Source of the DNA: Lama guanicoe
Taxonomy: Eukaryota
NCBI GenBank assembly: GCA_013239625.1
Contig: MU055744.1
Location: 898,355-962,354, forward strand
Length of the DNA: 64,000 bases
Direction of reading: 5' to 3'
Position 1 is the first letter of the stretch. Each line of letters starts with the position of its first letter. A model generated the notes under the pieces. That model saw nothing but the letters and a program-made list of their open reading frames with translations, was not told where the DNA came from and did not search any database. This document shows, one piece after another, positions 11,265 to 42,123 of this stretch. The translations under genes were made by a program, and so were the position numbers.

Positions 11265-11429
11265 CTAAATAAACTTTTCTTAAAAATTTTGGAGCGTTAG
11301 ATGTACCAGAGAGCGGCAGAGACAGGACAGCGAGCCCGCGAGCCCCACGCCCAGGTTTCCCCCGTGCTGACACCTGTGTTCCTATAGCACGTGCGCTGTA
11401 GCGCGTGGACCAGGATGGGCGTGCTGTGA
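11265..11429 (-). mobile_element. L1MC-type LINE 3' end (left part, interrupted by Tigger1)
   Basis: aaacttttct...ttagatgtaccagagagcggcagagacaggacagcgagccc...ccaggtttcccc resembles the reverse strand of the L1MC 3' terminus. Confidence 0.6.
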
Positions 11430-13635
11430 AAGGCGCACCTCAGAGACCCTGTGGGTCCAGCCTCCGCCCGCCGCAGTGCAGCGATGAGCCAAGAGAGCGA
11501 GTCCCAGGACTGTCTGGTTTCCTGTGCGTCTGAAAGTGGTGTTTACGCTGCCCCCCACCCCGTTCTGTGACGCATGCAGCGGCGTCGCGTCTCAAACGAC
11601 CAGTGTACACGCTGGCACTTCTGACGCTCGATGGCTGAGAACCGCTACCCATCACCTGAGCCTTCAGCGGGCTCTGATTTTCCTGCTGCCTGAGTGGGTG
11701 GCGGTGGCCGAAGGCTGGGGGTGGGGAGGGGCTGTGACAATTTCGTAAAACAAGACACCAATGAAGTTTGCCACATCAACTGACTCTTCCTTTAAGGATC
11801 TCTCTGCAGCAGGCAACGCTGTCAGACAGCGTGCACCCACACTAGGACTTCTTCCAAAATCGGTGTCAGTCCTCTGAAAACTTGTCACGGCCTTATCAGC
11901 AAAGTCTATGGAATATTCTAGACACTTTGTTGTCACTTCCACATTCCTCACAGCATCTTCACCAGGAGTGGAGTCCATCTCAAGAAGCCACTGTCTTCGC
12001 TCACCCACGAGAGGCAGCTCCCCCTCCATGCGAGCGTTGCCCCGACGCTGCAGCAGTGCGGCGCCATCCCCAGGCTGCACGTCCAGTTCTGGCTCCCTTG
12101 CTGCTTCCACCGCATCTGCTGCCACTTCCTCCAGCGAAGCCTTCACCCCTCAGCCACCCAGGAGGGCTGGGGCCAGCGTCTTCCAAACGCCGGTGAGTGT
12201 GGCTGTGCTGGCCTCTTCCCGGGAACTGAGAGTGTTTCTTAACAGCATTGAGAAGGGTGAATACGTCACAGAACATTTTTGGTTCACTTGCCCCAGGTCC
12301 GCCAGAGGAACCACTATGTAAGGCAGCTGGACTCGTACAGAACACAATTCTTGGGTAATAAGACTTGAAATGACGTCTGAGCCGGGCTGCAGGACGGGCG
12401 CCGTCAGCGGGGAAACCGCGTCCGTGGCGCCGTCCGTCCCGTCAGAGCGCCCGGGGGCCCAGGTGCGTCCAGGGCCGGGGCGCTTTGAAGGGAAGCTGTT
12501 TCCCGGCAGCGGGCGCGCAGCGGCAGGAGCCGGCGTCGGCCCGGCCGCGGGCACGGGCAGAGCAGCCCCGGCGCCCCCTGAAGGGCCTGGGAGTCAGGGA
12601 ACGGCCGGCGGGCCCTGGCTCCAGCCCGGTCGCCAGCTGCGTGAGCCCCTGCCGGGACGGCCACCCGCCCGTGGCGCCGGGAGCCGGGCACTGGCTCCTC
12701 TCCGGACGGCGAGGCCCCGGGCGGCGGCCCCTTCCGGCAGACGGCGGCCCCGTCCGCCCCGAAAGCCTGCGCTCAGTGTAGCCCCCCGTGAACGGCCGCG
12801 CCCCACCTCGCGCATGACTCGCCGGTCACCTCGGCCTTGGCGGCTGCGAGCCGGCGTCTGTCCTTCCGCCTCGGGCGCCGGCCTCCGCCGGCCTCACGCG
12901 CCCCCGGGGCCTCCCGCCGCCGCAGGATGGAGGGGGCCGGGGCCCCGCTCCGGGCGCGGCCTTGGCCGACGGGGGCGTGAGGCCGGCCTGGTCTTCGCTG
13001 CAGACCACGCAGGCTTCCCCCGGGGCAGCAACAGGGCCGGTTCCCTTCTCATCACTCGTGTGTGCACGGGAGCGGCGCGCTCGATTGCCTTCGAGGGCCT
13101 TCCCTTTGCCCGCACAGCTGGGCTGACTGGTGCAGAAGGCCGAGTTTTGGGCCGACCTTGACTTTCGACGCGCCTTCCTCACGAAGCGTCATCGTTTCCA
13201 GCTGCGGATGGAGAGTGGGAGACTCCTCCCTCACGTGCGGACCTGGAGGCCACGCAGGGCTGTCAGCGGGCCTGACTCCCGCGCTGCCGAGTCTCGGGGC
13301 CGCGGGGCCCGGGGAGAGCGAGGGAGGCGGGGAGCGGCCCTCGGCGGAGCCGTCCGACCGCACCCGAGGCTCACGGGTTAAGGTCGCGTCTTACGCGGGC
13401 GAGGTTCGTGGCACCCGGAACAATGACAGTAGCAACCGACTCAGAGGTACCGAGAAATTTGAAATATTGTGAGAATAACCCACACGTGATGCAGGGACAC
13501 AGGGTGAGCCGACGCTGTTGGGACAACGGCGCCGACAGACCCGCTGGAGGCCGGGTGGGAACAGACCTCCAATCTGTGAAAAGCACAGTGTCCGCTCAGG
13601 GCGGGACAGCGGAGCCAACAAACGCAGTCGGCCTG
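11430..13635 (-). mobile_element. Near-full-length Tigger1 (TcMar-Tigger) DNA transposon fossil, strongly GC-shifted
   Basis: Degenerate TIR-like ends (aaggcgcacctc, compare CAGGCATACCTC; ...gtcggcctg). ORF 11664-12146(-) reads KASLEEVAADAVEAAREPELDVQPGD...EMDSTPGEDAVRNVEVTTKCLEYSIDFADKA, matching the Tigger1/TIGD1 transposase C-terminus. Collinear with the recalled consensus throughout. Confidence 0.9.
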
Positions 13636-15200
13636 AGTTTTCGTCTGTCCTTTGTTTCTCACCTAATGTCCTCCTTTGTCCCAGGACCTCACGTGACTTT
13701 CAGGCATCAGGCCCCCGTGGGCCCCTCGGGGCGGGCACGGTCCCTCAGACTCCCCTCTTGGCGATGGCCGTGGCAGTAAGGGGGCAGCTCGGGGGCCTGT
13801 AGACTGTCCTTCGCCCGGGACTTGTCTGGCGCCGCTCTCGGGGCTGGACTTGGCGGTGGGTTTGGCGGGAAGACCCCGCGGGGGCACTAGGAGCCCTTCT
13901 GCAGGCGACTTGTCCCTTCTCCTCCACTTAGTGATGCATGTATTTGTAGGAGTTCGGACTCACGGACATTCACATCATGCTTTGAGTTGTAACCCAATTC
14001 TACTTGAATTGCTCTGTCCCCACTTGGATTTTCCAGCCCCTGCCGCTGGGAACCGTGCCGGCCGCCTGCTTGTCCCTCTGACGACCCCACCGTTCCGCTT
14101 TTGACTTCTTGACCGTCACCTCCTGGCTCAACAAGATGCTCCAGGCTCATCCTGGCCACTTCCTGCCCTCGAATCAGCGGCTTGCCCCAGGCATCCTGGT
14201 TCTTGCACTGGAGGATGGTGTTGGAAACCAAGGCCTGGGTGCGGGGGTGCTCAGTGGCCACTGGGTGCTCTCCGTCACTCTGCTGTCTCTCAGCTGATGG
14301 AGCAAGAAAATTGCATGTATCCTAACCTGGGCTGCGTTACACATAATTCTAGATGTTTCTCCATGCAGCCGTCTGTACGCAGCTGACCGCACGAAGGCAT
14401 AGTGCACAAGGTCGTGAGCCCTGATCCTTCACCACCCTGCCTACCTGCCCCTCCCACGCCGACACGCTGGCTCCCACCTGCTGCGTGGTCACTAGAGGGC
14501 AGCCTCTCGCGTCCAGTTTTACAAACCCCACTCATTTCAAAGCTGCCACTCCTTCCGTGAGGCTGGCTCAGGAGGATGGTTCTCTCACAGCCTGTGGTCC
14601 ACCCTGGGATTCTCCCCACCCGCTGAGCAATTGTTTTATTTGCATAAACACGGTTCACTGTGTGTGCCGTGAAAGTCCTGTGGGTTCTGACGAGCATGCG
14701 GCGTATCCACCAGCAGCCTCGTACAGAATCATTTCGCTGCCCAGGATTTTTAAACCCTGTGTCTCGCCTCCTCACTTCCCCCACAGCAGCCCCTGGTGAC
14801 CACCGATCTGTTCGCCTTTCCTCTGGTTCTGCCATGCCCGGAGCCTCATGCAAATGGGGCCGTGCTAGGCGTGGCCTCCCCTTCCCAGGCTGTCTCCCCC
14901 AGCGACGTGCGCTATGATCCACCCCGCCTTTTCCTGGCTTGACGGCTCACTTCTCGTTAGTGCTAAGAGTTCCCCTGTCTGGATGGACCTCAGCCTGCTC
15001 GTCCATCCGCCTGCTGCTGAAAGGCCCCGCGGCTGCCTCCAGGCTCTGGTGGCTGTGAGTAAAGCTGCTAGAGAGGAGCGTGCGGGGGTGGGCGTGTTTT
15101 CAGGTCGGCTGTGCCGCCCAGGAGCGCGGTCGGTGCACGGTGTCTAGCGTTGTCTGAAATTGCCAAACGGCCTCCCAGAGCAGCCGTCCCAGCCCCCTGG
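13636..15200 (-). mobile_element. L1MC-type LINE 3' UTR/ORF2 end (continuation after Tigger1)
   Basis: ctaatgtcctcctttgtcccagga, caagatgctccaggctcatc, ggaaaccaaggcctgggtgc and gaaattgccaaacggcctcccagag match L1MC3/4-like consensus blocks in order. Confidence 0.75.
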
Positions 15201-23105: not shown

Positions 23106-23253
23106 CTAAGTCATTTGGTGCGGGGCTTCCAGCATCTCCATGAGGAAGGTGTCGATGGGCGTGTCCCCAATGAGTTTGAAGAAGAAGAGATGTTCCAGGC
23201 ACTTGAGGCCGATGGAGCGCAGGGCCGGCAGGCGCAGCAGGAGCTTGGCAAAC
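23106..23253 (-). CDS. RXRA: RXRA exon 10, coding part (dimerisation helix 10/11, AF-2 helix 12)
   Basis: [48 protein letters not shown] then TAG; 148 nt. The C-terminal HQMT is typical of RXR-alpha. Confidence 0.98.
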
Positions 23254-24848
23254 CTGCGGAAGAGGAGCCGGCGTGAGGGGCCGGCGAGGCCCCCCACCCC
23301 ACGCCCGGTCCCGGGAAGGGACCACCTCATTGCCCAGTCCCCCTGCCTGAGCCGAGCCTTGGCAGGGAAGGGGGAATCTCTCAGGCAGAGGAAACAGCAG
23401 GCCAGTGCCTGGAGGCGGAAGAGTGCAGGGTGGGTGCAAAGACCCTGCAAGGAGACCCCAAGGGTGGAGACTGGGGATGAAGGGCCAGAGGCAAGACAGC
23501 AGCCAGGCGGGAGCAGGCTGAACAGGGCTTCGTGGGGCTTCCTCCAGGGGCGAGAGGGAACCACAGCAGGGCTTTAAGCAGGGAGGGGGGCTACAAGAAG
23601 GGGCCTGAGGATCAGCGCTGCCTCTGGCTGCAGCGGGGAACGAAGGTGGAGAAACCCCTGAGCTTGGATCAGGTCTGGGCTCCAGCAGGCCCTTCTTAGA
23701 CAGCTCCGACCTCCAGGGTGCCCACCATCAGCACCCACCGCCCAGAAAGAGCCATGCTAAAGCTGAGCCAGGGGCACCTGGTGCCCGGGGGGCAGGGCGG
23801 GAGGGAGGGAGGGGGCTCCTCAGGCCCTGCTGGCCGGCTCCCCGCCCCCCCCATGCCCCGAAGTTGCTGGTAAGAACTCTGGTGGGGCAGGGAAGGGGGA
23901 AGACAGCTGGGGGTACTCCGCTATTCTGCCACCGAGGACCCTCCGGAGCTGCGGGGCCCTATTAATTATTAACAATGTCTGTATTTCGGGGGGGAAGCTC
24001 CGGGCTTGGCTGCAACACAGCCTGCGTTTTAAAGGCAAAAATGCAGCTTAGAAGCTGGACCGAGGCCAGAGAACAAGCTGTTTTCTGCTGAGCTGGCGAG
24101 ACGGGCTGGGCCAGGAAGCCAGGAAAAACAGGAGGGCCTGCTGCCCCTCTGTCCTCCTCCTCCGGGAAGTTTCATTTAAACCAAACCAGATGAGGCTGAG
24201 CAGAAGCAGGACACGGTTAACCATGTGTGCGCCAGTCGGCAGGGTGGGCAGGGGAAGGAGGAGGCCTGGTCTCAGAGGCCCCCACCCCGTCCCAGAAGGT
24301 GCCCCTTGGAGGGGGGAGAATCAGGACTACAGATGCAGAATGCCAGGAAGCCACTCATGTTCTCCCTTCTCTTGGACCCCCACTGTGCGTCCGGCACCGT
24401 GGACCCGGAAATGAGACAATTCCAGCCCTTCTGGGGCCCACAGTCCGCCAGGCAAGAGAGCCAAGCTCTGCACTCAGACTGTGCGTGAGTTTGTAAAGCA
24501 CCTACTACGTGCTGGCGTCCATCCCTGCTGGGCGAGCGCGCTAAGGCCCTGCCTCCAGCAGTTCCCTTTGGCGAGAGGTGGAAAGCACTGCCTTTGTTCA
24601 TGGGCTCCACAGAGACAAGCACCTACTGTGTGCTGGCACCAGGCCCACCTCTGCTGGAGCCACAGGACAACGTGAGAGCATAGTGCTCGAGCCAGGAGAG
24701 CGCCTTGACTCCTGCCCTCGATGGAGGAGGGGTGCCAACTTCTAATTCACAGAAGTGCCCAGCGGGCAGGTGGTGGTCCTGCCCTGGGCAGGGGGTCTGG
24801 AAAGAGCCCTGGAGGTCCGTCCGGGCAGAGGCTGCGCCCAGGTCTCAC

Positions 24849-24954
24849 CTTCCCGGCTGCTCCGGGTACTTGTGTTTGCAGTACGCCTCCAGGGACGCGT
24901 AGACCTTCTCACGGAGCGCCTCCACCTCGGCCGGGTTCGAGAGCCCCTTGGAGT
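24849..24954 (-). CDS. RXRA: RXRA exon 9 (LBD helix 9)
   Basis: [36 protein letters not shown]; 106 nt; cccag| acceptor and |gtgaga donor. Confidence 0.98.
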
Positions 24955-26506
24955 CTGGGAGGGAGCAGGGCCTCAGGTCAGAGCTTGTCCCCGGGAAGGG
25001 GGCTGCCCCTGGGACCCACAGATCCTGCCCAGACATCGTGCCCTGTGCTTGAGCCCCAGCCCTGCCACGACCTAAGGCCAGTCCCCTGACCTCCTGTCAC
25101 TCAGCTGCCCAATCTGTAAAGTGGGACTGCTGCCCTGACCGCTCCTTGCTGCCATGGAGACTGGGCTGACGCCTGAGGCCTCTGCTGCACTGGCTCCCAG
25201 CCCCTCTGAGCTGGATGAAGGTTCCAAAGCCTCTCCTTGAAATAGCCGGACCCACGCTGCAGGGGGGCCTCAAGCCATCTTCAGCTCTGGGACCCTGGGG
25301 GTGGGTCCCAGTGTGGAAGGGGCTCCGCTGGTGGACAGGGATGCCTGGGACGAGGGCCAAAAAACCTCCAAGGCCCAGGACTGAGGACTGAGGACCGCAG
25401 GCTGTCCCCAGGTCACCTCGGCGGGCTGTCACAGGCCGCCCTGGAGCAGGCAGAGCCCCCAGCCAGGTAAAGCTTTGCTGAGCCTTCTCTTCGTCTCCCG
25501 TGGTTCCCCTACAAGCCAACGCCGGACCGACTTTTCTCTCTGCCCCCTGCCCCACAACAGCCACCACAGGAATCAGGATTCGGGCTCCCGCAGAGGAGTC
25601 TGGCCCCAGCCGGGCGTGGTCCATCCTGATGGCAGGGGGGCCACCTGCCGCTGGCCGGCAAGTGCTGCAGCCCCCTGGGGGCTGGGCCGTGGGGCAGGCC
25701 AGCTGCGAAGGCGTCTCTGAGCCCCAGCCCGGGGGCCCTGCCCCGGCCTGCCTGGCCCTCTGACATCCCAGCAGGGGCACCGCGCAGCTGCTCTCCACAG
25801 CCAGGCTCCCCGGGCCCTGGGGCTGTGCCCGCTGTGGCCGTCTCCCTTCTGTCCCCAGCGGCCCCAAACCCAGGCCCCAACAGGAGAACCAGCGCCCGCG
25901 GCCAAGCCACATAGGATTCCAACAGGGATCCCGCCGGGCCAGGCCAGGGCTCACAGCTCAGCTTCCCATCCTGGCAGGGTCACACGCCAGAGCACAAACC
26001 CTGTGAACAAACGCCCCTGGGAACAGCTGTCCCCACGAGGGGGCCGCGTCTCCACCCCAGCCGGCCCCTCAGTGCTGGAGCCAATGGAGAGCAAGGAGGT
26101 CAGGGCCCGCGAACCCTGGGGCTGTCCCACCCTCACCACCGCCTGCTTGGTTCCCTGCACTTCCCCCCAGAAGCCCGCAGCAGCCCTGAACCTGCCCCGT
26201 GTCCCGGTCCAGCCCCAGACCATCCGGGGTCCAGAACGTCAGCCGTGGAGGCGCATGAAGAGGCTGCCTCTCCTGGAGCCCGGATTCTGGGCCAGGTGGT
26301 GCCACGCTTTGGACAGTGCCCAGAAGGCCTGGCCAGAGGCATCCCGAACCACGGAGGATGAGCTTGGCCAACTGAGCCGTGCTGGACCCTCACAAGGGCC
26401 TCGAGAAGGCGGCACGGCTGCACCCCCATCCTAAGAGCGACATGGAGGCCGGGGGGGGGGCGGCTCGCCAACACAGCAGCACCAGCGGGCAGCGGGAAGG
26501 CAGTAC

Positions 26507-26598
26507 CGGGGTTGAAGAGGACGATGGCGCGCAGGCAGCCCAGCTCCGTCTTGTCCATCTGCATGTCCCGCATCTTGGACACAAGCTCCGTCAGCACC
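26507..26598 (-). CDS. RXRA: RXRA exon 8 (LBD helices 7-8)
   Basis: [30 protein letters not shown]; 92 nt; cctcag| acceptor and |gtactg donor. Confidence 0.98.
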
Positions 26599-27821
26599 CT
26601 GAGGGGGAAGCGGCCAGATCCAAGTCAGGCTGTGTCCCCCAGGGCCCCCCAGAAACCCCCGAAGGACTCCGGGAGCCCGACGTGGGCCTGGAGGGCAGCT
26701 GAGACGGGCCGACGGTCTCCACGCACAACCTGTCCGGTCCCAGTCCCAGGGTGAGTGCCTCTCCCCTCACCAGAAAGGGTCTGCACGTGGGACTTTACTC
26801 TGGGAACCTGGGGACGAAGGAGGACCTTCGTCTGAGGCGAGCCAGAGCTCAGCTGCAGACCAGGCACGGTCTGGCCCTGCTGCCCCCATTCCGACCGCCA
26901 CCTCGAGCCCATGGGAGGCCGTCTCCCTGGCTCCTGGCTCCTCCTGGTTGCTCCACTTCCCACCACCGGCCACTCATCACATGCCCTTCACCGTCGCCTC
27001 CCAGCATCTGGGACCCCTGGACGGCCGGCTGCTGCATGGCTGGGGCTGAGCTTGAAGACACCCCCCCAGAGGGACACGCTCCCCACAGGAAGCTCTGTGG
27101 GCAATGAACGCTGCCCCCCACAGCCCCCTTGGGTGGCGCCCCTGCACTTGCGTTTACTAAAGGCCCTGAAACGTCCTGCAGCAAAGACGTCTACACACTG
27201 TCTGCACCAGCGCCCGCCCGCAGTACGCGGCGCGTGGAAGTCAGAGGGGCGGCACAGCTCCCACACTTACCCCCAGGGGGCGCCGGCAGGGGACCCGTCC
27301 CTCCACCTCCTCCCCGGCCTGCTCCTTCCCCCTCGCCACTCCTGGGCAGCAGCCCCCCTCCGAGGGGCCCGCGCCGGCTGGCTGCGCCGACGCCCAGGTC
27401 CCCAGGGGCCCCAGGCCCTCTGGGCTCCCAGACAAGACCAGCCGGAGACAGGAACGGGCAGCTCCTGGCCGCCTGGCCTGGTGCAGCCGACGGGCTGTGC
27501 TTCCGAGAGCACCTGAAGGCCACGCCCGCCCGCCGACCAGCCCCAGGCCTCCGGGTGTGAGCTGAGAAGCGGCAGCGGCGCACAGAGGTGTGTGCTAGTC
27601 CCGGCTCAGAAGAGGCCCTGTCGTGGCTGATGTGACAGCCACCGTGAAACTGTATCCACGGCGTAATCTACCTTCGCTTTAGAAACAGTGCAGCCTTCCT
27701 CCCCACATGCAGGGTTTAAAGAGGGAATGGGCGGGGAATAAACCAAAATGCTAACTGTGGCTGTCGGGTCCCCCCATGGTCCACGTGCAAAACCTTCAGG
27801 AACAGGACGGACACCGGGCAC

Positions 27822-27954
27822 CTGTCAAAGATGGCGCCCACGCCCGCGCTGTGGGCGCTGTTGCGGTGGACGTGCAGCCCGGTGGCCAGGAGGATACCGT
27901 CCTTCACGGCTATGGAGCGGTGGGAGAAGGATGCGATGAGCAGCTCGTTCCAGC
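27822..27954 (-). CDS. RXRA: RXRA exon 7 (LBD helices 5-7)
   Basis: [45 protein letters not shown]; 133 nt; ccgcag| acceptor and |gtgccc donor. Confidence 0.98.
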
Positions 27955-28724
27955 CTGCGGGGAGGAGGTGCACGCGGTCACCGCTGTCTCCAGGCCCCCA
28001 GCCACCCAGCCCCCAGCCCCCAACCCCAGTTCAGACCTCCAAAGGCGGCTCTCACACACCCATCCCTCTGGGAACCCAAGCCAGGAATCCAGGGAACCCC
28101 AACCCCATGAACATTCCACAGAAAGGAGGTTCCCGAGCACTGGCGCCTGGGAGGTGCCTCTACAGTGCGCATGGGCACAACAAAGGCCCTGAGGAGTCCT
28201 GTGCAGAGCATCTCCTGAAGCGCAGTTGAACCCCAGCCCTCCCAAACTCGGGTGCCGGGGAAGTCTCTGTCTGCAAATGCAAGACGCTTGTGCCACAGAG
28301 CGAGAGGGAGGTCCCACGACCCTTTCTGGGCAGCCGCACAGCAGCTGCCACCAGTCTGGTCCCAATGGCAAACTCCCAAAGATCGGCACGTGCTGCGTGA
28401 ATGCCACAAAACAGGAAGTTATTAAACTGAAAAAAGGCATCTTGGAGCCACAGGCCAACTCACGCTCCCTGTAAGTGAGGCCCTGGCGTGCACAGACCAG
28501 AGTGGGTATGAGGGCTGGGAGCAGGGAGGGGAACAACTCCGTGCTCAGACGCTTCAATGCTGCTGTGAACTGGAGCACGTGAACCATCTCCCCTAAGGAC
28601 ACCACTAGTGACTGTCACGGCCACCACTCCCGAGGGCTCCAAAGGGTCCAGGCTCCATGGCTGACAGACAGTATCATGTGGATCATCCCACCTAATCCTG
28701 ACTCAACCCGACAAAGCAAGTACC

Positions 28725-28790
28725 TGCCTCATTTTACAGAGGGGAAAACTGAGGCCCAGGGAGAGGAAGGGGTTGCCCCGTCAGAGAATC
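28725..28790 (-). mobile_element. MIR core fragment
   Basis: cctcattttacagaggggaaaactgaggcccagggagaggaaggggttgccc. Confidence 0.65.
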
Positions 28791-29464
28791 GGGAAGAGAC
28801 CCCAGCGCCTCTTCGACAGCCTCCCCTGATGGCTCTGGGTGCTGGGTTTTAGAGTGAAAGCTCTTCAGGGCTGGGCTGCCCCCCAGCACAGGCCTGGGGC
28901 ACGCTGGTCAGGAGGCGGCTGCTGAGGGGGCTGCAGCCCTCTCCCCGCGCCTCCCAGCTCATCCGTCCCTGCTGTCCCTCCGGCAGGAACTTGCACCCTG
29001 GATCCCAGCCTCACAGCGGGCACCGGCTTCCCCTCGGCACGTCCGTCATGACCACTTCTGGGACTCAGGCCTGACCCCACGCCCAAAGTGGACGCTCCCC
29101 ACAGCGGCCCGGCACCCCCGTGGGGCCCCGCTCAGTCTCGGGAGATGTGTGTCACAAGCACAGGCCAGGAAAGGGGAGGAGGCAGAACACACAGACCCCT
29201 AAGGGCAGCCCCTGCTGCACACGCCTCCTTCTCCACGGCCCCTCCAGACAGCCCTTTACCTCTCTGAAGGCCACCAGCAGAGACCCCAAACTTACTATGC
29301 CCCTATGAGGCAGGTGAGGGAAACTGAGCTGGAGGGGGCAGTGCTGGAGCAGGACCCCGGCCCTGGGTCCCCAGGCACCCTCCCCCCTACAGCCCCACAC
29401 AGCAGGAGAGAGGGGTTGCCCCAATCCCGTCCCTGCATCCCCGCCCCCCAGGCCCGCCACTCAC

Positions 29465-29594
29465 CTGCCCTCAGCAGGATGACCTGGTCGTCCAGGGGCA
29501 GCTCGGAGAAGTGCGGGATCCGCTTGGCCCACTCCACCAAGGTGAACAGCTGCTTGTCCGCCGCTTGGCAAATGTTGGTGACGGGGTCGTTGGG
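29465..29594 (-). CDS. RXRA: RXRA exon 6 (LBD helices 3-4)
   Basis: [43 protein letters not shown]; 130 nt; ccccag| acceptor and |gtgagt donor. Confidence 0.98.
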
Positions 29595-29666
29595 CTGGGG
29601 GAGGGGCACGCAGTGAGCGCCACAAGGAGAGCGTGGCCCCAGACCAGGCCCCCCATGCTCTACCCA

Positions 29667-30060
29667 TGGAGGCGGAACAACACCCCCCAGGACATCCTCG
29701 TCCTCACTCCCAGAGCCAGCAAATACACCACTAGTGACAGCGAAAGGAGCTCTGCAGACGCGATCGAGGTACAGGTTTTGAGGAGGGAGGTTATCCCAGA
29801 AGAGGTGGGTGGGCCCAGTGTCATCACGAGGGTCCTTACAAGAGGGAGGCTGAGGTCAAGGAGAAGATGCTGCCGGCCATGAAGTTAGAGGAAGGGCCCG
29901 GAGCCAAGGAGCAGGGGGGCCTCCAGAGCTGGGAGGGGCCAGCACCGGTGCCCAGATGTGGCCCAGAAATACTGATTTCTCCAGGAGCATAAGATAGGAA
30001 AATCCGTTGTTACAGGCACATAGGGTGTGGTCATGTGTCCCAGCAGACACAGGACAATCG
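29667..30060 (+). mobile_element. MLT1 (ERVL-MaLR) solo LTR in intron 5
   Basis: aaaggagctctgcagacgcgat...gggaggttatcc...ggtgggcccagtgtcatcacgagggtccttacaagagggagg...gagccaagga...ataagatagg match MLT1D-like blocks. Confidence 0.75.
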
Positions 30061-32204
30061 CCCCGTGTTGTGACCCACTGGGTCCACACTGCAGCCCTGG
30101 GGGGCAGTGCCGGGCGACTTCGCGTCCCAGACCAGGGAACCGAGACACGGGAGAGCGTGTGGGGCCGGGATGGGCTCCGCCAGCCCCGCCGGGTTGCTTC
30201 TTCCTACCAGACACAGAGGTGGAGCGCAGAACACTGCGGTGCACCAGAGGCCCTTCCAGAAAGGTCTAGCCAGGAGGTGCCGCCCTGGACATTCTTACAG
30301 ACCAGGAAAGCCAGGCGGGCCTCAGTGTCCCAGCCTGTGGGGCTCGGAAGGCGAACCCTCTGGGTCCTGGGGGGACCAAGGCTGGTGCACCGGATGCAGG
30401 AATCCCTCATTCCAGAAACCACGACAGCCGGCGTCCACGTGAGGGAAGGCCTCCTCCAAAGAGCCTCCTCTGACAGAAACCATCTGCCCTCCAGTGACGC
30501 TCAGTCTAAACAACCCGGCCCCACGCAGGGCCTGCCGAGGGCTCTCGTGGGAGGCCCAGCGACAGACTGGCACGAGGCCAGCAGGGCAGACGAGGCGGGC
30601 ATGCAGAAAGGGGGCCTGGGGCCAAGGGAGGGCAGCAGTCGGGGTCCCCGCAGACCCCAGGGGGAAGGGTGGGCCAGCACTGGCACGCAGACTCCCCCGA
30701 AGTCACCTTCACACAGAAGTCCCTGAGCTGTAGGGGGCTGGCACACGTCCTACAGGGCATCCCCTCCTCCGTCCCCCTGCCGTCTGCTCCTCTGAGAACC
30801 TTCTAGGAGCAATGACCAGAAGCCTGAATACTTGCCAGCCCTGAACACCACGTATCTGGCTCAGGTCACCTGTGGGCACACCCCCGCCCCATGCCACCTG
30901 ACACAGGACGGCAGCCACAGTAGAGGCTGGTCTGCACGGGGTGGCACCCCAGCAGCGAGCGTGCCAGGGCCATGGCCAGGCTCCACCCCGCAGGGCCCCA
31001 GCGGTTTTCTGCCATGTGCAGACCTGGACCTGCTCCCTGCCTTTCCATACCACAGGCGGCCCTCCGACGTGAGAGCCCGGGCCAGGGGGATGGGGGCCCG
31101 GGAGAGCTGCACAGCGGGGAGGCAGAGGATGTGGGGAAGGCCGGACAAGAGCCCCAGACTGGAGCCCTTGGATAAGGCCTTCTCCCTGGCCACTGGCAAG
31201 CACCCTCTCCGAGTCCTCCAGGGGCCCAGAGCAGGCCGGGGGCACAGGATGGCACCCTGAGCCCCTCCCAGGCAGGATGGGGCCTCAGAGGTGGGCGCCA
31301 GGTCATGTCTAGAACTGAGAACAAGGGGTGTCGGTGCAGGGGGTGCAGGGCTAGGCCCTGGGGGCTCCCCAGGGGGAGGGGGCCCTCCCGGGGAAGGGGG
31401 CTCCAGGTCCACCCTGCTCCATCCTGCAGAGCAAGTGCTTAACTTCTCTGAGCCTAGATTCCCACCCAGAGACAAAACAGGCCTCACCAGAGAGCAGGCA
31501 TCACCTGAGCTCCCGCCCCGTGCCCAGTGCAGGGGCCTTCCCTGTCCTGGGCAGTGACAGCGGGACCCCTAGGGCTCCAGGGGTACCAGCTGCGGCTCGT
31601 GCTGTGGGTCTGAGGGGAGAGGCCTAATGAGACATCCTCAGAGGGGACCAGGTACCCTGCGGGAGGGCAGACCATGCACAGAACCCCCACCCAGCCAGCC
31701 CGCCCACCTGCCATAGGGGAAACCGCCCTCCTGGTCTGCATTCGTGGAGAGAGCAGACAGCAGACTTGTTTTTCCCAAATAATGTCCTTACTTGACAAAA
31801 TTAAAAGCTGGCAGACCTCTGAGATCTCCTAACTTTCCCGTTGGAGTCTCTGCTCAATCATGAAACTCACAGCGGGCCTCCCCCACCCTCCCTGGGACTG
31901 GAGACGGGGTGTAGGGTGGGGCTGGGACATGGGCCACACAGCACTGTTGAGCATCCAAGCCAGAGAGGGAGGTCAGCCATTCCACAACCAGGGGCGGCAC
32001 CCCCAGAAGGAAGGGGTCTGACGGGCCGTGGGCCTGGGGCACCAGGCCTCCCATCACAGGGGTGCAGAGGAGCAGCGGTGCCCTGAGACCACAGGCAAGA
32101 TGGGACCCCCACACTCAGACTGTGGCTGGGGGTCACAGTGAACACCTATGGTTGGGACAGGGTCTCCGTCCCTGACTGCAGCTGGGCAGTGAGGGCAGCC
32201 TCAT

Positions 32205-32274
32205 GGTGGGGAGGGGGAACCAGCCGCCACACCCCCCACGGTGGGGAGGGGGAACCAGCCGCCACACCCCCTAC
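32205..32274. repeat. Tandem duplication, 2 x 35 bp
   Basis: ggtggggagggggaaccagccgccacacccc(c/t)ac-type unit twice, with one mismatch. Confidence 0.9.
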
Positions 32275-32349
32275 GCTCGGGGCCCTGGTGGGCAGCCACA
32301 GGGGCTCTGAGCCCAAATAACAGGGCTGCTGGGGGGGGGGGTCAAGAGG

Positions 32350-32560
32350 GAAAGGGCTCCCTGAGGAAGTGACCCTTTTCTGAGACTGAAGCCTGAGTGG
32401 GAATAGTGAGAGCAGCATGTGCAAAGGTCCTGGGGCTGGGCAGGGAGCGTCCAGTGCAGCAGAACGTCAGTGGGTGTGGGCCTTTGTGAGCCAACGACAG
32501 AACAGAGGGAGGGAGGCCAGGGTGACCTCAGGGCCAGCCTGGGCAAGGTCTCCAGAGCCA
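32350..32560 (-). mobile_element. L2 fragment
   Basis: gggctccctgaggaagtgacc...ctgaagcctga...cagcatgtgcaaaggtcctgggg is a typical L2 reverse-strand signature. Confidence 0.5.
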
Positions 32561-32832
32561 GCCATAGGGCTCCGGCCCCAGCCCTGAACCCACACAGGAG
32601 ACACAGATGAAGTCTGGACCCAACATTGCCTGCAAACCTGGGGCAGACACAGAACCCCTGAAACCGGCTGGACAATGGGCCAGAGATGCAGGTAGCTTGA
32701 ATGTTAAATGTAGAGTCCTGGGCTTTGAACCGAGCAATCAAAACATCATCCACCCGACTGGGAACCAGCCAGCGGGGCCGTGACCAACGGGGTTCCCCAG
32801 AGCAGGGTGGGCGGGGGCGGGAGTGCACTCAC

Positions 32833-33002
32833 CGAGCTGGGGTTCAGCCCCACATTCGCCTCCACATACGTCTCGGTCTTGGGCTCCACGGCCAGCTCGG
32901 CCTCCAGGATCTTCTCCACCGGCATGTCCTCGTTGGCGCTGCTCGTGGACTCCACCTCGTTCTCCCCCCGGTCCTTGCCCCGCTGCCGCTCCTCCTGCAC
33001 GG
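32833..33002 (-). CDS. RXRA: RXRA exon 5 (T-box/hinge, LBD helix 1)
   Basis: [57 protein letters not shown]; 170 nt; ccag| acceptor and |gtgagt donor. Confidence 0.98.
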
Positions 33003-33224
33003 CTGGAGCACGGGGAGGCCGCCGGTCAGCCCACAGCTCCTGCCGCAGCCCCTCCGCTGCCAGGGGCCAAGCAGCGCCCACCCTGAGCCAGCCCGTCCAC
33101 AATGTCGGCCAGAGCCAGGGAGACTGACGCTGCTCGGAGCTGGCCAAACCACAGCCAGGTCTCTGCCCCATGCCTGGCCTCCCAGTGGCTGTGGGCCCTG
33201 AGCACAGAGCATGCCACTTCTCAT

Positions 33225-33480
33225 TAACTCACTCAACTACTGTTCACACCAAGACCCACCCAGGACCAGCACAGTTGGGGCCTGGCGCTCGGGGAGCTGA
33301 CGGTTCAGCAGGAACCCAAACATGCAAGGAGAAGGGCTCTGATAGGCTATAGACTCGGGCAAAGCCAGGAAGGCTTCCCGGAAGAAGTGGCAATGAAACT
33401 GAAGAAGCAGGGAAAACAGGGGTAACAATTCAGGCAGAGGAGGCAGCATACACAAAGGGCCAGCACCAGAGCAGAGATGC
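33225..33480 (-). mobile_element. L2 3' fragment
   Basis: tcattaactcactcaac...aggaaggcttcccggaagaagtggca...caggcagaggaggcagcatacacaaaggg. Confidence 0.55.
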
Positions 33481-35749
33481 TGCTGCCCCAAGGCCTCCCA
33501 TACCAGCTGCAGAGTCACAACAAGGGGTACAAGCATGGGGAGCAGGGCCGGGCACCTGGATGGGGTCCAATGTGTCCCAGGAAAGGGACAGGAGGGGACG
33601 CAGATCCCTGACAGGCCCCTTCTACTGCAGGGAGGAGAGGCGCCAAACCCAGGCATGAGTCGGGCCGCCCTGGGCTGGCCTGGCGGGGGCCGGGGCAGGG
33701 GACAGGCGCAGCACGGGGGTGGAGGACCGAGCAGATGGTGTGGTCAGCGGGGCGGCCTAGTTTCTGGGAACCCAAGGAGAGAAGCTGATGGGAAGGGCTC
33801 ACTTCAACGCTGTCCCCAAGGGGACCACACGGAAGGAAGGTCAAGGGGACTGGGCACCCCACAGCTGGGCGTTCATAGACCCTCGACTTTGTGGCCTGCG
33901 CAGCTCAAGCCGCCCTCTCCCAAGAGGGGCCGGGCTCACTCCATGCCGGCACCCCAGAGCTTCGGGAACTAAGCGGCACCACACTCATCCTCGGGAGGTG
34001 GCACGGGAGGTGGCACAGGAGGTGGCCACGAACCACCGTGTGCCCCAACTCCCAGACCACTCCTGCGGGGATGGACCTCAAGGCCTAGAGCGACACACGT
34101 GAGAGCAGGAGGGCCTGCGGCATCCACAGGCCCCGCCCCCCACGCCCGGGACCAGCCAGACCTGGGCTGAGCCCCGCCCCACCCCAGCTTGGGACCAGGC
34201 CTCATGGCGGCCACTCCTCCTGCCCCCTGGGGACCGTCCTGCTCCCCAGCCACACTCAGAGCCACGGCACCAAGAGGTCCTGGTCAACGGCCCACCCCGG
34301 GGGACCTGAGGATAGGATGTTCCGACAGAGGCTGGTGACCGTGTGGGAAGCTCCAGGTCAGCTAGCGCACAGGGGCTGACTCAGGCCGGCTGACTGCGAC
34401 AGCTGCAAGCACCCTGGCCTGGAGCCCAGCCTCTGGTCAGCCCTGGAGGTGGGGGCTCAGCAAAGAGGCCACAGGGCTTTCCAAGGACACCCACCTCCCT
34501 CGTCCAGCCCTAGTCCCACCCAGGTCTCCCTCTCCTTATTTCTCACCCATCCCAGAGTTTTGCCCCCCAAACCAGCCCGAACACCCTCCCCACTGAGCCT
34601 CAGCCCGGCACCCCAGCCCTCATTCTCCTGGGGGAGCTTGCTCTCAGCCCCCTCCTCTTTCCCGGTCCAACATGATAGGCCAAGCTCCCAGAGGCCGGGA
34701 GGGTGCGGCCCCCGTGGGGCCCCCCACGTGCCAGCGCCTCTCCAGGCCTCAGATGGGGCTCACCCTCCCCTGCAGGACATCTCTGCCGGGCAGAAATGGT
34801 TCCGCATCCTCGCTGACATCAGCTGCCACGGGACTGCCCCCGTGCACCTCCAGACCCACCCTGCCTGCTCCAAAGCCCAGGCTGGGGCTCTCACTCAGGC
34901 CGCTCACCCTGGGCAAATGCAGAGGACCAGCCGGAGGAAGGCGGGGCCCCACCCCGCCCAGCCTTGTTCTCAGGACTCCGCAAGCCCCCCATCCCCTTCT
35001 TCCAGGCGGGGGGGGGGAGAGGGAGGGCCCCCCGCTGCTGCTGCCTGGGGATCCTGCAGGCCTGAGTGGTTCTGTAACAATGCACATAGGTCCCTCTCCA
35101 CCACGCCATGCCAAGGGCTTCCTGCCGGCCTGCTGACACCCATTCAGAGAATGCTGGGTCCGTCTCTGCCCCCCTCCAGACTGCGGGGCTCCCTGAGCCC
35201 TTCCTGCATCGACAAGTGGCCATCTGCAGCCACCCCCTGCCAGGGCTGCACCAACCCAGGACCCAAACACTGACTCAGGTGAGGGGCTTCCCATCCGTGG
35301 GGGAGACTCAGACACGGCCCGGCCAGCACCTCAGGTTGCACCAGCCGGGCCAAAGAGCCAGGCAGGAGGCCTGGAGTTTTTGCAAGCCTGGTGCTTCTGG
35401 AAAATCTGACAGCCGGTGGGGCTTGGCGGGGAGCTCAGGCTGGCTGGCCTGACTCTGGCCGCTCCCCACATGGGGTGCTGGGCTAGAGCGGGCACCTCCT
35501 CACAGCACCCTCTGTCACAGGGGACGGGGTCACAGGCCAGCAGAGCCCACCCTGTGGGAGGCTGGTCTGGGCTGGCATCCAGGGTGACCCTGAGACCTTA
35601 GAGGATGGGGTCCCTGGTGTCTGCCCCTGGACAGAATCCTAAACCCTCAGGAGCTAGGACACAGCTAAGGGGTGCATCTCACCACGTGGGGAGACAGTGC
35701 CGGAGGGGTGAGGCTGGGCCCCCAGGAGAGCGGACAGCTGAAAGCTCCA

Positions 35750-35860
35750 GGCTCCAGAGTCAGACCCTGCTCTGCCCAATAGCTGTGTGGCTCTGGGTGA
35801 GACCCTGGCCTCTCTGTGCCCCAGTTTCCTCAGCTGTAGAATGAGAACGACACGCTGGCC
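35750..35860 (+). mobile_element. MIR fragment
   Basis: ccagagtcagacc...agctgtgtggctctgggtgag...ctctctgtgccccagtttcctcagctgtagaatgaga. Confidence 0.6.
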
Positions 35861-37250
35861 TTCAGGCTGGAGCCACAGGGAGGTGCCCTCGGGATGTCCC
35901 CAGCTGTCACATGCCTCCCGCTCCCACGCTCCCCACGACACGGCCCAGCTACGGGGACTTCCTCCCACTCCACAGACAGCCCGGGGCACGGGGAGTCCCG
36001 GACGAGGTGGCCCCATGCATGGAGGCAGCGCCAGGAACGGGGAGAGGGCGGGGGTTCCCGGCACCTGCCTCCTGCACGGGGGCGGCAAGAATTAATTAGA
36101 GTGCTTTGTGAAGCACTTGGAAGCCGTGAAGGCCCACAGCTCTGAGCAGCGTCTTATAAATATTATGGTTTTATTTATAGACGGCGGAGGGGGCGGGGGA
36201 GCCCGGGGATTCATTTTGCCAGCTCAATCACCTTGCAGTAGTCCTGTTTGACTTACGTCCCGCTGGCGCCAGGAAGCCTCGGGCAGGAGGCGTCTGCGAA
36301 GACAGGGCCTCGTTATCCTCCCAGCCCTGAGTGTGGGGCGGAGGGGACGGCACAGGGAGGGGAGGCTGCCAGGAGCGCAGATGCGGCTGGGCCGGGCCAG
36401 GCGCTGGGGATCCCCAGGAAAACCCTCGGGGCTGACCCCACACCGCAGCCAAGCACATGCCTGGGAGGGGGGCTCAATGCCCAGCATAACCGGGGTCCCC
36501 GGCATGCGGAAGAGGGACACCCCGGACCTGCCTGGGGCTGGGCAGGAAGCCTCGGGGTTGGGGGCACCTGGGGGAGGGAACCCCAGGTCTGCTGCTTCCC
36601 CGGTTCAAAGCACTGCCAGCCGGCCGGGCCCTTCCTCCATCCCTTCCCCCTGCAATCTGCCTGCCCACCCCCCACAGCAGGCAAGAGCGGATTTCACTAG
36701 AACGCTCTGGCCCAGCCGCCTCTCCTTAGGGCCAGAGGACGGTGCCTCTGCCCGAGGTCACATGGCCAGTTACGTCTCTCAAGCTCGGAGGACGCGTCCC
36801 TCTGTCCCCCAGGGGACTCAGTCCAGGACAAGATATCTGCACATGAGAATGATCACCCTGTGCTCACACTCTCCAACCCCACCACTGGTCCCCCAAGGTG
36901 CTGCCACCCGCCAGGTTCCTCCCAGCAAGCCCTTGAAGGGAGCCTCGCTGACGTGCTGCACACGGGAGAAGACATGGAGGCTCGGAGAGGCAAAGCCCCA
37001 CGCCGTGTTGACAGGGAGGCTGGGACCCAGCTGGAGCCCCTTCTCCACCAGACGTGGGGCTCCACGTGCCTGTGCACACACCCCAGTCCTGCAGAGTCAG
37101 AGATGGGGCGCGGGAAGCACAGGGAGGCAGGAAGGAAAGGGGAGAGGCTTCCTGAGGGAGGAAGAAGGGACCAGAGAGGGCCCGAGTCACCCCGGCCGGG
37201 GGCCAGGTCACCAGCATCAGACTGGGGAGCCCTGAGTGCAGGGCCGGCCT

Positions 37251-37593
37251 CCCTCATCAGACCCAGAGCGCCAGGCTCTGCCACCGCACGCTCCAGCAGA
37301 GGCCCAGGCTCGGCCAGGGGAAGGCTGGCCTGTGTGGCATTTCCCACCTGGGCCCCCCAGTGCCCGGGAATGCTGCGGAACAAGTCCCTGGTGGCTGCTT
37401 GTGTGCGAAGGCCCTGGCCGACACGACATGCTATCAGCAGCGGTATCCCTCATTAGCCAGCAGGAGGTGGGGTCCTCGCCGGCCCTCCCTGAGGTCCGCC
37501 AGCAGGGGTGCCAGCCGCGGGGCGCTCCCTCCCAGCGCTGCAATGCGCTGGAGCGTGCAGTGGCAGGGCCTGGCGCTCTGGGTCTGATGAGGG
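37251..37593. repeat. Inverted repeat: 47-bp arms at 37251-37297 and 37547-37593, 249-nt spacer
   Basis: Arms are reverse complements at 45 of 47 positions. Confidence 0.95.
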
Positions 37594-40479
37594 CTCGGGC
37601 CAGCCAGAGGAGCAGACAACTCACATCCTATGTGCTCCCGGACAAGGCTGAGGTGGTACCCAGGTTCCCCACCTCCCAGGACGGCCACCCTGCCCCAACC
37701 CATGCAGCCAACAGCCCCACCACCTCCCGGGGGGCCTCTCTGCAGGTCAGCCACTGCACCCGGCCCCTCGAGAGGAGGCCTGCCCCTCGACCCCTCAGAG
37801 CCACTCGTCCTGGAGACCACTGAGTTCCCTGCACAGCCGGCACCAAGGCCACACCAGGGCCACTGGTCACTCCTCCCAAGGGCAAGGCCATGGCCTGGGC
37901 CTCACAGGCACCTTGCTGCGAGCCACGCCCCAACGAGCGCGGGTAACGGGCACTGCCACCCACGCGAGGCCGGAGCGCACCGGCAGAAGGCCCGGGCCTC
38001 CTCCTGCGCCCTGGGCTCTCGGGCCTGCACAGAGCCACCCTCCACAGCCGGGGGGAGGGTTCTGCGTGGTGCTCCAGCAGGAGGGAGCTCTGCTGGAAGG
38101 TCCTCACGGCCTGCTCGTGACTATAAACCCAGCAGGAGGCCGGGGAAGGCGGGTCCCGATGCGATCAGGCACTTATCTGATGGCCCATAAATCAGGTCTC
38201 GAGGGCCGCGCCGCCTCGGGAATGTGCCCAAAGCTGCAGATTTATGCACCAGACGGGAGAACGCGGGCGACACAGCTCTGGACCAGACAAACGGGAGCAG
38301 CCCGGGCCCCACGGTGCCGGCTCTGAGGCCTCCCCGAGCGCCCCTCGTCCCCGGGTCTCCATCTGGGATGTGTGGGGACAGCATCGCAGCACCACGGGTG
38401 AGTGAGAGTGTGCGTGACGAGGACAGGGTGCCCAAAGAGACCCCGGACACAGCAGGAGCTCCTAACAGCCGCTGTAACAAGACCCAGTCACCTAGTCACT
38501 GGTGAGCACCAGGGGAGGGCCCAGGCCCGGTGACTCCCCAGCCCTGAGACTGTGGCTCCTTGGGGCCACAGGCAGCTTGAGTCTGCTGACGCCCAGGCTC
38601 ACAGGTGGACAGGCTGAGGGGGCTTTAAGAAGGAGTCAGCACTTCCTGGACAGTCTCGAGGACCGGCAGAGGGCACTGCCTGCGGCCCCGCAGGGTGCCA
38701 CAGCTGCTGACAGTCTCGGCTCCTGCACACACTGCCCCCTCCAGCCGGGCACATGGTCTGCTGAACACTCTTCAGGTGTCAGCTGGACACCCACCCACTC
38801 GAGCCTTGCCTGGCGCCCATGGCTGGGCCAGGCACCTCCTCTGGGCTCCCACAGTTCCCTGGGCTTCTCCAAGCCAGCAATGACCACAGCTGGGGGCCGG
38901 CCTGTCTGACAGTCACTTTGAATGGACGGAGGACCACAGCTGGCCGCTGTGTGCCCAGCGCTCAGCATGGGGCCAGGCACCAGGGGCGGTGAGCCCAGCG
39001 AGTGAGTGATCCCAGGCACGAATCGAGGCTCACTGCACAGTGGTGACCTCGAGGGGGCCTGGAGCCTCGAGCTGCATGGCAGGGCCCCGCCTCTGGCCAG
39101 GCTCCACGCATGGTGCACACTGATCCCTGCCCACCACGTGCTTGCCCCGCCCAAGTTTTCCCCCTTCAGGAGCAACGCTGCACTCACCACCTCCAGCGAG
39201 CCCACCCTGACTGCATGGGGCGGACAGAGGGACCAGGTCTGGGTACATGCCTCCCCCAGCCAGGCCCACGCTTCTTCTGCCCCTCGCTGGCCTATAGGAA
39301 CAAAGTCTACACCGGAAACCAGAAGTTCAGGTTCCAGGCTGGCACGTGACTGTGGACAAGCCCTGGACCCTCTAGGCCTGTTTCTCCACCTGCGCAAAGA
39401 AGCATGGGCCGAGCTCTCTAAATAAACACGCGCCCAGATCAGAAGGCCTGGTGGGCGGATGCCCATTCGGCCCAGGACCGCCCCTCAGCTCACAGGAGGC
39501 TCCCCTCTGTGGGGTCCACAGACCCACCGCCCCTCGCCGGGGGCTGCCACCCAGCCCCAGCCCCACCCCCACCAACACTGCACTCCACACGCGCTCACAG
39601 CCTCAAGGAGGAAATCCTGCAGGACCGTGTGGCCTTGCTAGAGTTTCAGTTTCTTGACAACAACAATTGATGGGTGCTGAAGAGCAAAAAAAAAAAAGAA
39701 TGAAATGGGATGAAATCTGCAGCCCGGGGACTCCGCCAGGAGACAGTGGGACAGAGGCAGGCAGACACAAGCCACGTGCGGACCACGGGAGCAGCCACAG
39801 TGCAGAACGGACCACACGGATCCTGACCCCAGACAGCACCTCCCAACCCCACGAGGCCCCGGGCACGAGACTCAGAGAGATGCGGCCCATCCCAGACCCC
39901 AGGGTGGATGCAGACCAAAACCTAGAGAAGACGCCCAGAACACAGGAGCCATCAAACCTGCAGAGGGGGAGACAGAGACCCCCAGACAGCAAGGGGAGGC
40001 GAGGAGCCCCCTCTGGGCTTCCACGCTGCCTGCCCCCACCCACCCCGAATAAATGTCCTCAATGAAATGGGCCCATAAACCCAAGCCCGAGAGGCCCACG
40101 GCCCGTCCCTCTACTGTGAGGACCTGGGGTCACCAGGCACTCTCACCCAGGCTCACAAGAGCAAGCAGAGCATGGGATGGCCTGGCACCCAACAGGCTTA
40201 GGGACATCCTGATGGACGTCTTGATGGTCTTATTAGAGTTCCCTGCCCTCCCACCCCTGAGTCAGCACTGTCCCCTCCAGGACGTGACCGTCTCCTCACC
40301 CAGCAGAGCACCAGGCCCCAGGTGCACCCACTCTCCTGGGCTGGCTGCCTCCGGTGACCCCCTACCCCCCACCTCCAACCTCGGCCCTCGATGTGTTTCT
40401 GCCTCTCCACCTTCCACAGCCCACGCACCTGGCCCGGGCCCACTACGACCTTGAAGAGGCCTTGACCAATGCCTGTCCC

Positions 40480-40580
40480 CAGCGGGGCCGGGAGCAGCCC
40501 GCAGGCAGGACCAAAGTTGTGTCTCCTCTAACCCAGAGCCTGGCATACAACAGACGCTCAGTAAAGGCACGGTGGGTGAG
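40480..40580 (+). mobile_element. L2 3' end fragment
   Basis: cccagagcctggcatacaacagacgctcagtaaaggc resembles the L2 terminus. Confidence 0.5.
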
Positions 40581-40843
40581 CCCACAGCCCAGGGGACAGG
40601 CTGCCAGCACTGCGGCAGCTGCCTCTGGAGGGAGTGCGCGCCCCGTCATCAAAGGTTCGCAAACGCGACGGCCACCACTGGAGGTCTGCACAGCTGCCGA
40701 GTCTAGGGCTGGACCCTGTGCTCCAGGAGCCCGGGCCACGCCACGAGGGGGCCTGTGGGAGGCGGCCCCGCCCACTCATCCGCGGCCCGCCTCGCGCCTC
40801 GCGCCCCACGGCTTCCCGGCCGCCCCGCCCCCCGCCTCCGCCT

Positions 40844-41002
40844 NNNNNNNNNNNNNNNNNNNNNNNNNNNNNNNNNNNNNNNNNNNNNNNNNNNNNNNNN
40901 NNNNNNNNNNNNNNNNNNNNNNNNNNNNNNNNNNNNNNNNNNNNNNNNNNNNNNNNNNNNNNNNNNNNNNNNNNNNNNNNNNNNNNNNNNNNNNNNNNNN
41001 NN
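40844..41002. other. Assembly gap (159 N) in intron 4
   Basis: N-run. Confidence 0.99.
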
Positions 41003-41323
<321 letters not shown>

Positions 41324-41324
41324 G

Positions 41325-41415
41325 NNNNNNNNNNNNNNNNNNNNNNNNNNNNNNNNNNNNNNNNNNNNNNNNNNNNNNNNNNNNNNNNNNNNNNNNNNNN
41401 NNNNNNNNNNNNNNN
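41325..41415. other. Assembly gap (91 N) in intron 3
   Basis: N-run. Confidence 0.99.
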
Positions 41416-41480
41416 CCGCGCGCCCCCCGCTGGCCGCCCCGCCCTGCCCGGGCCAGCCCTGCTGCGCCGTGGCGCCTCAC

Positions 41481-41631
41481 CTGAGGAGCGGTCCCCGCAG
41501 ATGGCACAGATGTGCTTGGTGAAGGACGCCATGTTCCCTGAGGGGTGGGCCGGGACTTTGAGGACACCGTTGAGGCCCAGCGGGGGCTTTATGTCCTCGC
41601 TGCTGCTGACGGGGTTCATGGGGGAGCTGAG
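41481..41631 (-). CDS. RXRA: RXRA exon 3 (end of A/B region, start of zinc finger 1)
   Basis: [50 protein letters not shown]; 151 nt; cctcag| acceptor and |gtgag donor. Confidence 0.98.
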
Positions 41632-42123
41632 CTGAGGAGGGGAAACCGCGGTCAGCCCTGGGGGCCAGAAGGTGCTGCCACACCCCCACTGTACAGAGAG
41701 AGAAACTGAGGCTCAGAGAGGGGCCCTGTCCACCCCAGGCCCCACGGAGGGGCAGCTGGGTGCTCAGCCTGCGAGCACGGCAGGCTGGCGGCGGCTGTCC
41801 CGCCCTCGGAGCCCCACCCTCCCACAGCAACCGGGCGTGAAAAAGACCTCGAGAGGCCCCTGCTCATACGCGCATCCCTCACCCACCTAAGTAAGAACTG
41901 CCTGCCGTTACTGGGTGCTCCCCCCACAGGCCAGCGAGAGCTCCGGGACCCCCTGGGGAGGCAGGCGCTTTGGGGACCCCTGGCCCACAGGTGGGCACCG
42001 AGTCTGGTCGCAGTGAGGAGGGAGGAGAGGGTGTCCACCCCAGCAGGGCACACAGCCTCAGCAGGCAGGGTGGGGGTCAAAGATCACACGACCCAAGGAG
42101 AGAGGGAGGAGACACCAACCCCT

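Follow-up and report, generated by a model that had tools for sequence, protein, structure and literature searches.

A Tigger1 transposon fossil downstream of RXRA with a core probably rewritten by GC-biased gene conversion

The RXRA-adjacent locus and the identity of the element

The window (the whole 64-kb stretch of DNA that was analyzed) has a GC content of 64.6% and a CpG o/e of 0.44. Its context gene is RXRA; the translation of one exon matched RXR-alpha chains (E 1e-27), and that of a second matched a nuclear-receptor ligand-binding domain. The GC3 of the gene was 337/365 over eight exons, whose ends are approximate. A transposon fossil with a GC-rich core (12380-13420) lies downstream of this minus-strand gene, as the first-pass annotation had stated, the RXRA stop codon (23106-23108, minus strand) being 9.7 to 10.7 kb from the core. 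The distance of 6 to 7 kb from the RXRA 3' end given in that annotation is plausible, we assume, only if the UTR ends at ~19.5 kb (human UTR length); no canonical poly-A signal was found between 16641 and the stop codon. The features of the locus are the following.

11430..13635, minus strand: fossil of a Tigger1-family DNA transposon, close to full length, recognized by transposase homology; the ends are those proposed in the first-pass annotation
11630..13253, minus strand: broken transposase frame covering TIGD1/Tigger1 aa 1-593, collinear, the alignment containing 34 deletions and 3 insertions
12400..13050, no strand: peak of A/T-to-G/C rewriting, 58-73% of the A/T at codon-fixed sites per 150-bp window, with 0-1 G/C lost per window
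11600..12379, no strand: shoulder with a weaker shift (67/234 A/T-to-G/C, 18/178 G/C-to-A/T)
13261..13420, minus strand: non-coding DNA immediately upstream of where the transposase begins, with 75.6% GC and a CpG o/e of 1.11
12237..14184, no strand: sequence-defined CpG island, 1948 bp, 67% GC, o/e 0.87, continuing beyond the element into the flank on the right
13636..15180, no strand: right flank, characterized by composition only (70% GC at 13700-13920, 53-63% farther out) and presumably L1MC, in agreement with the first-pass label
23106..41632, minus strand: RXRA coding exons (8, GC3 92%), the context gene

The core contains 140 CpG, with 75.7% GC and an o/e of 0.94, and 50 of the 60 bases at 12661-12720 are G or C; its earlier description as extremely GC- and CpG-rich relative to the window is accurate. 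The richest 1-kb CpG window in the 64 kb falls inside the element (134 CpG, against 75 for the best elsewhere). CpG islands were called at ≥500 bp, GC ≥55% and CpG o/e ≥0.65, and the island at 12237-14184, which lies above all three thresholds, was the largest of the 13 calls of at least 500 bp in the window. Two other sequence-defined islands were observed at 1-750 (o/e 0.69) and 58037-58851 (o/e 0.80).

Three assembly N gaps (40844-41002, 41325-41415 and 47156-47287) have CpG-rich flanks of 72-83% GC and stand beside RXRA exons, where they may conceal more intragenic GC peaks. At 7290-7590, a stretch that we take to be an old DNA-transposon fragment has 40% GC; still AT-rich 4 kb from the Tigger1 element, it is a weak internal control for locality. 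The tRNA-SINE promoter box had no notable match in the 64 kb, where one A-run of ≥10 was found, and the window appears to lack traces of recently inserted SINEs or LINEs. Set against the SINE density of canids, this repeat content would suggest a lineage outside the canids, in which PRDM9 is usually intact.

To identify the element, a stop-free minus-strand fragment was used as the query; it returned 969 related fragments, of which the best 150 were used, and a profile built from 40 of them yielded 56 long proteins, most of them named TIGD1. The majority residue of 27 aligned long proteins (91% mean column identity) served as the ancestral proxy. Since this proxy is a protein, only codon-fixed positions were scored, and the non-coding ends of the element remained unscored. 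The reference P0153, a pogo-like transposase, contains CENP-B_N, HTH_Tnp_Tc5 and DDE_1 domains. By tblastn, transposase residues 14-590 were placed at 13222-11651, with a best E value of 6e-35 for P0153. A frameshift-aware alignment, in which G/C mismatches were given no advantage over A/T mismatches, was collinear through the GC-rich core (aa 1-593). For aa 80-335 it scored 141.8, compared with -113.9 ± 11.9 (maximum, -78.5) in 100 dinucleotide shuffles (z = 21) and -108.6 on the other strand. Thus, the two claims made earlier, that the element is collinear with Tigger1 and that its GC-rich core aligns to it, hold over the transposase.

This result decides the question of whether the core might be GC-rich DNA inserted separately or an artefact of assembly, a proposal to which we now give practically no credence. 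In its favor, the core is barely detectable by plain tblastn and Pfam, and N gaps interrupt the assembly at GC-rich places. Pfam applied to 10 minus-strand frames gave a single weak unrelated match, and an initial homologue search with a window fragment gave no match. However, the core is collinear with the transposase at z = 21, and it is therefore part of a rewritten transposon, a later insertion being excluded. Against an artefact, 14 DNA runs from 5 studies and 5 organism codes contained 83-96% of the words sampled from 10500-14700, and the best of these runs may be the window's own source. Six RNA-type runs contained 5-10% of these words, which is not evidence of expression.

The ends of the element were less well defined. 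The bases at the proposed boundaries (11430 and 13635) are not the TA of a target duplication; the terminal repeats there have one 4-base run in common plus scattered matches, and the 25 longest of 92 inverted pairs included none that joined the two ends of the element. Either the terminal repeats and the target duplication are eroded, as expected in a copy so altered, or the ends are misplaced. A search for a DNA copy of Tigger1 in viral, metagenome and plasmid collections gave one weak locus (L001), which was left unused, and no orthologous frames of a 279-aa plus-strand frame over the core were found, which is weak evidence.

Direction and shape of the base change

At codon-fixed sites of the core (12380-13260), 156 of 280 A/T positions had become G/C, compared with 5 of 220 G/C positions that had become A/T, and codon-fixed GC had risen from 44% to 74%. 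Elsewhere in the frame the corresponding values were 67/234 and 18/178, different from those of the core in both directions (p 6e-10 for A/T-to-G/C, p 1e-3 for G/C-to-A/T). Over aa 80-335, in the peak, the counts were 127/204 and 2/176. Four gap settings gave 151-160 of 277-286 A/T-to-G/C and 4-6 of 214-224 G/C-to-A/T changes in the core, and sites away from gaps gave 96/174 and 2/124. Shuffled cores also yield ~118/183 apparent A/T-to-G/C changes, and the count is meaningful because homology is set by score and by a near-complete retention of G/C, with 2 G/C lost in aa 80-335 versus 12 ± 3 in shuffles. The excess of AT-to-GC change proposed in the first-pass annotation was thus recovered against the protein proxy ancestor, and its "de novo CpG island" is borne out as a statement about sequence.

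The two strands behaved alike in the core (67/173 for A>G, 46/107 for T>C), and 43 transversions accompanied the transitions (A>C, 30; T>G, 13). The changes are indifferent to protein function, with 164 of the 273 codons in the core altered and many frameshifts; 96 residue changes led into G, A, R or P versus 4 out of them. Among the shifts in the core were 11 T>A, 9 L>P, 7 I>A, 6 E>G and 4 V>A, the last four being those singled out in the earlier annotation. A local mutational bias, from an error-prone polymerase or from A-to-G editing of an RNA intermediate, would account for such a pattern only with great difficulty, and we regard it as most improbable. Near hotspots, meiotic break repair does increase mutations of the A>G and C>G types (PMC7615360), and the direction of the G<->C changes also counts for this bias: at 12530-13149, 11 of the 13 core G<->C changes run the same way (C->G on the plus strand), small numbers with no flip at the peak centre. 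Editing, however, is strand-specific and restricted to transitions, and mutation alone cannot lower the G/C-to-A/T fraction from 13% to 2%. G<->C changes are, moreover, raised outside the core (8/178) as well as inside it (13/220). At strict sites they amounted to 7/122 and 8/124 in shoulder and core, respectively, and over the whole copy to 21/398, compared with 184/8034 in control copies; raised G<->C was accordingly rejected as a core-specific mark of hotspot mutagenesis.

The A/T-to-G/C fraction per 150-bp window was 20-28% at 11600-12050, then 35-41%, reached 58-73% at 12400-13050 and fell to 34-44% beyond, giving a peak ~700 bp wide. A gradient, suggested earlier from the weaker shift of the flank, is therefore present inside the element. 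The peak stands on a high regional GC background (65%; RXRA GC3, 337/365). Both this background and the behavior of CpG-creating changes speak for the notion that germline methylation loss in a GC-rich region (65% GC, RXRA GC3 of 92%) suffices without any local hotspot. In the shoulder, CpG-creating changes look depleted (11/68 versus 43/150 for the others, p 0.06), whereas in the core CpG-creating transitions (46/88) survive undepleted beside those in a non-CpG context (67/147), with an interaction p value of 0.03. However, hypomethylation merely slows CpG loss, and the 67/147 non-CpG-context transitions of the core, compared with 43/150 a few hundred bases off, contradict this proposal, which we find barely credible. 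The undepleted CpG-creating transitions are the only hint about methylation, and strong gene conversion alone predicts likewise.

Selection for a CpG-rich enhancer or promoter serving RXRA or a neighboring transcript appears highly improbable. The island lies ~10 kb from the RXRA stop codon, and orphan CpG islands are associated with enhancer activity (PMC11170920), both of which would suit such a role. Against it, hundreds of separate sites were altered in a single chemical direction, G<->C changes are unsuppressed (13/220), 15% of the peak has been deleted, and GC-box density is near background (2.9 versus 1.9 per kb). Later co-option is conceivable.

Controls were 139 of 149 other Tigger1 fragments (10 with <50 aligned residues were dropped, and P0002, from the same locus, was left out); they were chosen by likeness to the RXRA-adjacent copy and are of unspecified lineage. 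Of 9 fragments looked up by cluster, 1 could be named. Pooled over aa 405-520, they showed 1286/12115 (10.6%) A/T-to-G/C and 1143/8787 (13.0%) G/C-to-A/T changes. In the same segment, which lies outside the core, the RXRA-adjacent copy had 30/105 and 5/80, and 1 of the 139 controls was higher.

A few other fragments were strongly GC-shifted: P0013 (40/105 versus 4/81), P0116, P0015, P0123, P0036, P0122 and P0009. Rewriting of Tigger1 is thus not unique to the RXRA-adjacent copy, and from their sequences these fragments suggest more rewritten copies in other mammals. Such fragments, P0013 and P0116 among them, had ≤28% of derived residues in common with the RXRA-adjacent copy, compared with 92% for P0002, and therefore cannot be called orthologues.

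Strength and duration of the bias and shrinkage of the peak

An established process, GC-biased gene conversion (gBGC), gives one-way, strand-symmetric, kilobase-scale A/T-to-G/C change regardless of function. The homology, direction, symmetry and shape described above, together with the deletions that share the position of the peak, are most simply read as its product: the Tigger1 core was probably rewritten by gBGC at a recombination hotspot of ~1 kb that presumably remained in operation during much of the period after insertion. The first-pass annotation had offered gBGC as its explanation, and that reading is well supported by a change that is one-way and strand-symmetric, includes transitions and transversions and forms a 1-kb peak with shoulders. 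Under this mechanism, meiotic breaks would have been repaired again and again at the locus, with G/C alleles favored in heteroduplex DNA. Fixation of A/T-to-G/C changes would have been raised about sevenfold and the reverse nearly abolished (B ~6-11 if constant), and the CpG island would have arisen as a by-product. Persistence at such a scale would point to a PRDM9-independent, promoter-like hotspot.

The A/T-to-G/C load was 7.3 times that of control copies, which would require a B of ~7 under a constant bias; with activity restricted to 10% or 2% of the time, B would have to be 64 or 314, respectively. In a toy model with assumed mutation rates, a constant B of 6.4-11 gave A/T-to-G/C 0.62-0.63, G/C-to-A/T 0-0.005, GC 0.77-0.78 and o/e 0.91-0.94, values to be compared with the observed 0.62, 0.011, 0.80 and 0.91. 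A late burst, confined to the final 10% of the time, gave G/C-to-A/T 0.055-0.09, and a hotspot dead for the last 20% gave 0.065-0.10 with an o/e of 0.64-0.75. In the model, therefore, a lasting and recent bias fits best, since a late burst leaves excess G/C-to-A/T change and a long-dead hotspot loses CpG. The hotspot had been called long-lived in the first-pass annotation, and that adjective stands here as a result of the toy model only. With strong bias, the modelled CpG o/e was ~0.9 whether tenfold CpG decay was included or left out, and the methylation state is therefore not readable from sequence.

A single short and strong episode of gBGC, or a chain of short-lived PRDM9-directed hotspots, would leave an identical substitution signature, and the burst model does reproduce the A/T-to-G/C fraction and the CpG o/e, as well as the elevated proportion of G<->C changes (0.05-0.08, compared with 0.068 observed). 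We nevertheless judge it unlikely, since it needs a B of ~64 (active 10% of the time) or ~314 (2%) and predicts 12.7 core G/C-to-A/T changes versus the 5 observed (Poisson p 0.013), the simulation likewise being against it.

Together with the change in base composition, which the first-pass annotation had described without mention of any loss of length, the peak has shrunk. Of the 765 nt expected for aa 80-335, 647 are left (15% loss), compared with 190/195 and 623/630 on the two sides. The peak at 12380-13030 carries ~22 small deletions and zero insertions, and the adjoining frame parts lost 1-3%; over the core as a whole, 25 deletions and 1 insertion were counted. The aligner produced ≤1 false deletion in 30 substitution-only simulations, compared with the 22 observed in aa 80-335. 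Short deletions and net shrinkage increase with recombination rate in transposable elements of birds and human (PMC3342960), and human autosomal hotspots are insertion-biased (PMC7615360). By analogy, the shrinkage would agree with a recombination-linked deletion bias and conflict with the insertion bias of human hotspots. Slippage in GC-rich DNA is an alternative cause of the deletions. The system of PMC3342960 is a broad-scale correlation in birds and human, whereas the loss at the Tigger1 locus is 15% within a 0.7-kb peak.

Relation to known systems and implications

Compared with TIGD1/Tigger1, the fossil is collinear over the whole transposase frame (aa 1-593), but its frame is destroyed and the codon-fixed GC of its core has gone from 44% to 74%. 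Dog-specific CpG islands have been attributed to gBGC, and the GC-peaks of that study resemble the Tigger1 locus in forming a ~1-kb peak with accelerated A/T-to-G/C change and a new sequence-defined CpG island off promoters (PMC4350167). The dog study, as far as its account of the approach goes, used three-species alignments, whereas here the transposon fossil supplies the ancestral state; the words "transposable" and "repeat" are absent from its text. PRDM9-independent hotspots were reported as active in 39 of 52 mammals, as stable, hypomethylated CpG-island-like sites read from gBGC footprints even with PRDM9 present (PMC11161765). Those hotspots were treated genome-wide, at loci orthologous to mouse and dog hotspots, whereas the Tigger1 case is a single intergenic transposon-derived locus, read from sequence only; by that study's own warning, GC* is unsuited to single loci. 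PMC11170920 counts gBGC among the sources of orphan CpG islands, which were called there on repeat-masked genomes. The transposon route set out in that article concerns inserted DNA already rich in CpG, unlike the rewritten, AT-richer fossil found here.

No published case of a Tigger1 rewritten by gBGC was found in a search that was thin in subscription journals. The locus is an extreme and clean example of a known, published process; the more novel parts would be how long the bias lasted, a possible origin of the hotspot in the promoter of the element, and the loss of length at the same place. The peak sits downstream of the old start codon, at a distance of 200-850 nt, beside a CpG-rich upstream stretch (13261..13420) that is, from its sequence, a candidate old promoter region. 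This position resembles the 5' GC peaks of genes, which follow recombination (10.1101/2024.03.12.584636). Speculatively, and with a rather low probability in our estimation, the transposon's own promoter, open in the germline, might have seeded a PRDM9-independent hotspot, and a self-reinforcing loop acting over tens of millions of years might have turned the first kilobase of the dead gene into a CpG island and trimmed 15% of it.

In general, since the transposase family supplies the starting sequence, which is presumably neutral, the strength, width, duration and indel effects of gBGC become directly readable at such a locus. Repeat-derived cases have been largely masked out of at least one study of CpG-island turnover, and heavily rewritten repeats can evade ordinary homology detection. 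Used as gauges genome-wide, Tigger1 copies could test the origins of default hotspots and of orphan CpG islands. If the promoter seeding were true, transposon fossils would be a source of new default hotspots, and default hotspots that persist would on balance remove DNA, in contrast to the insertion-biased PRDM9 hotspots of human.
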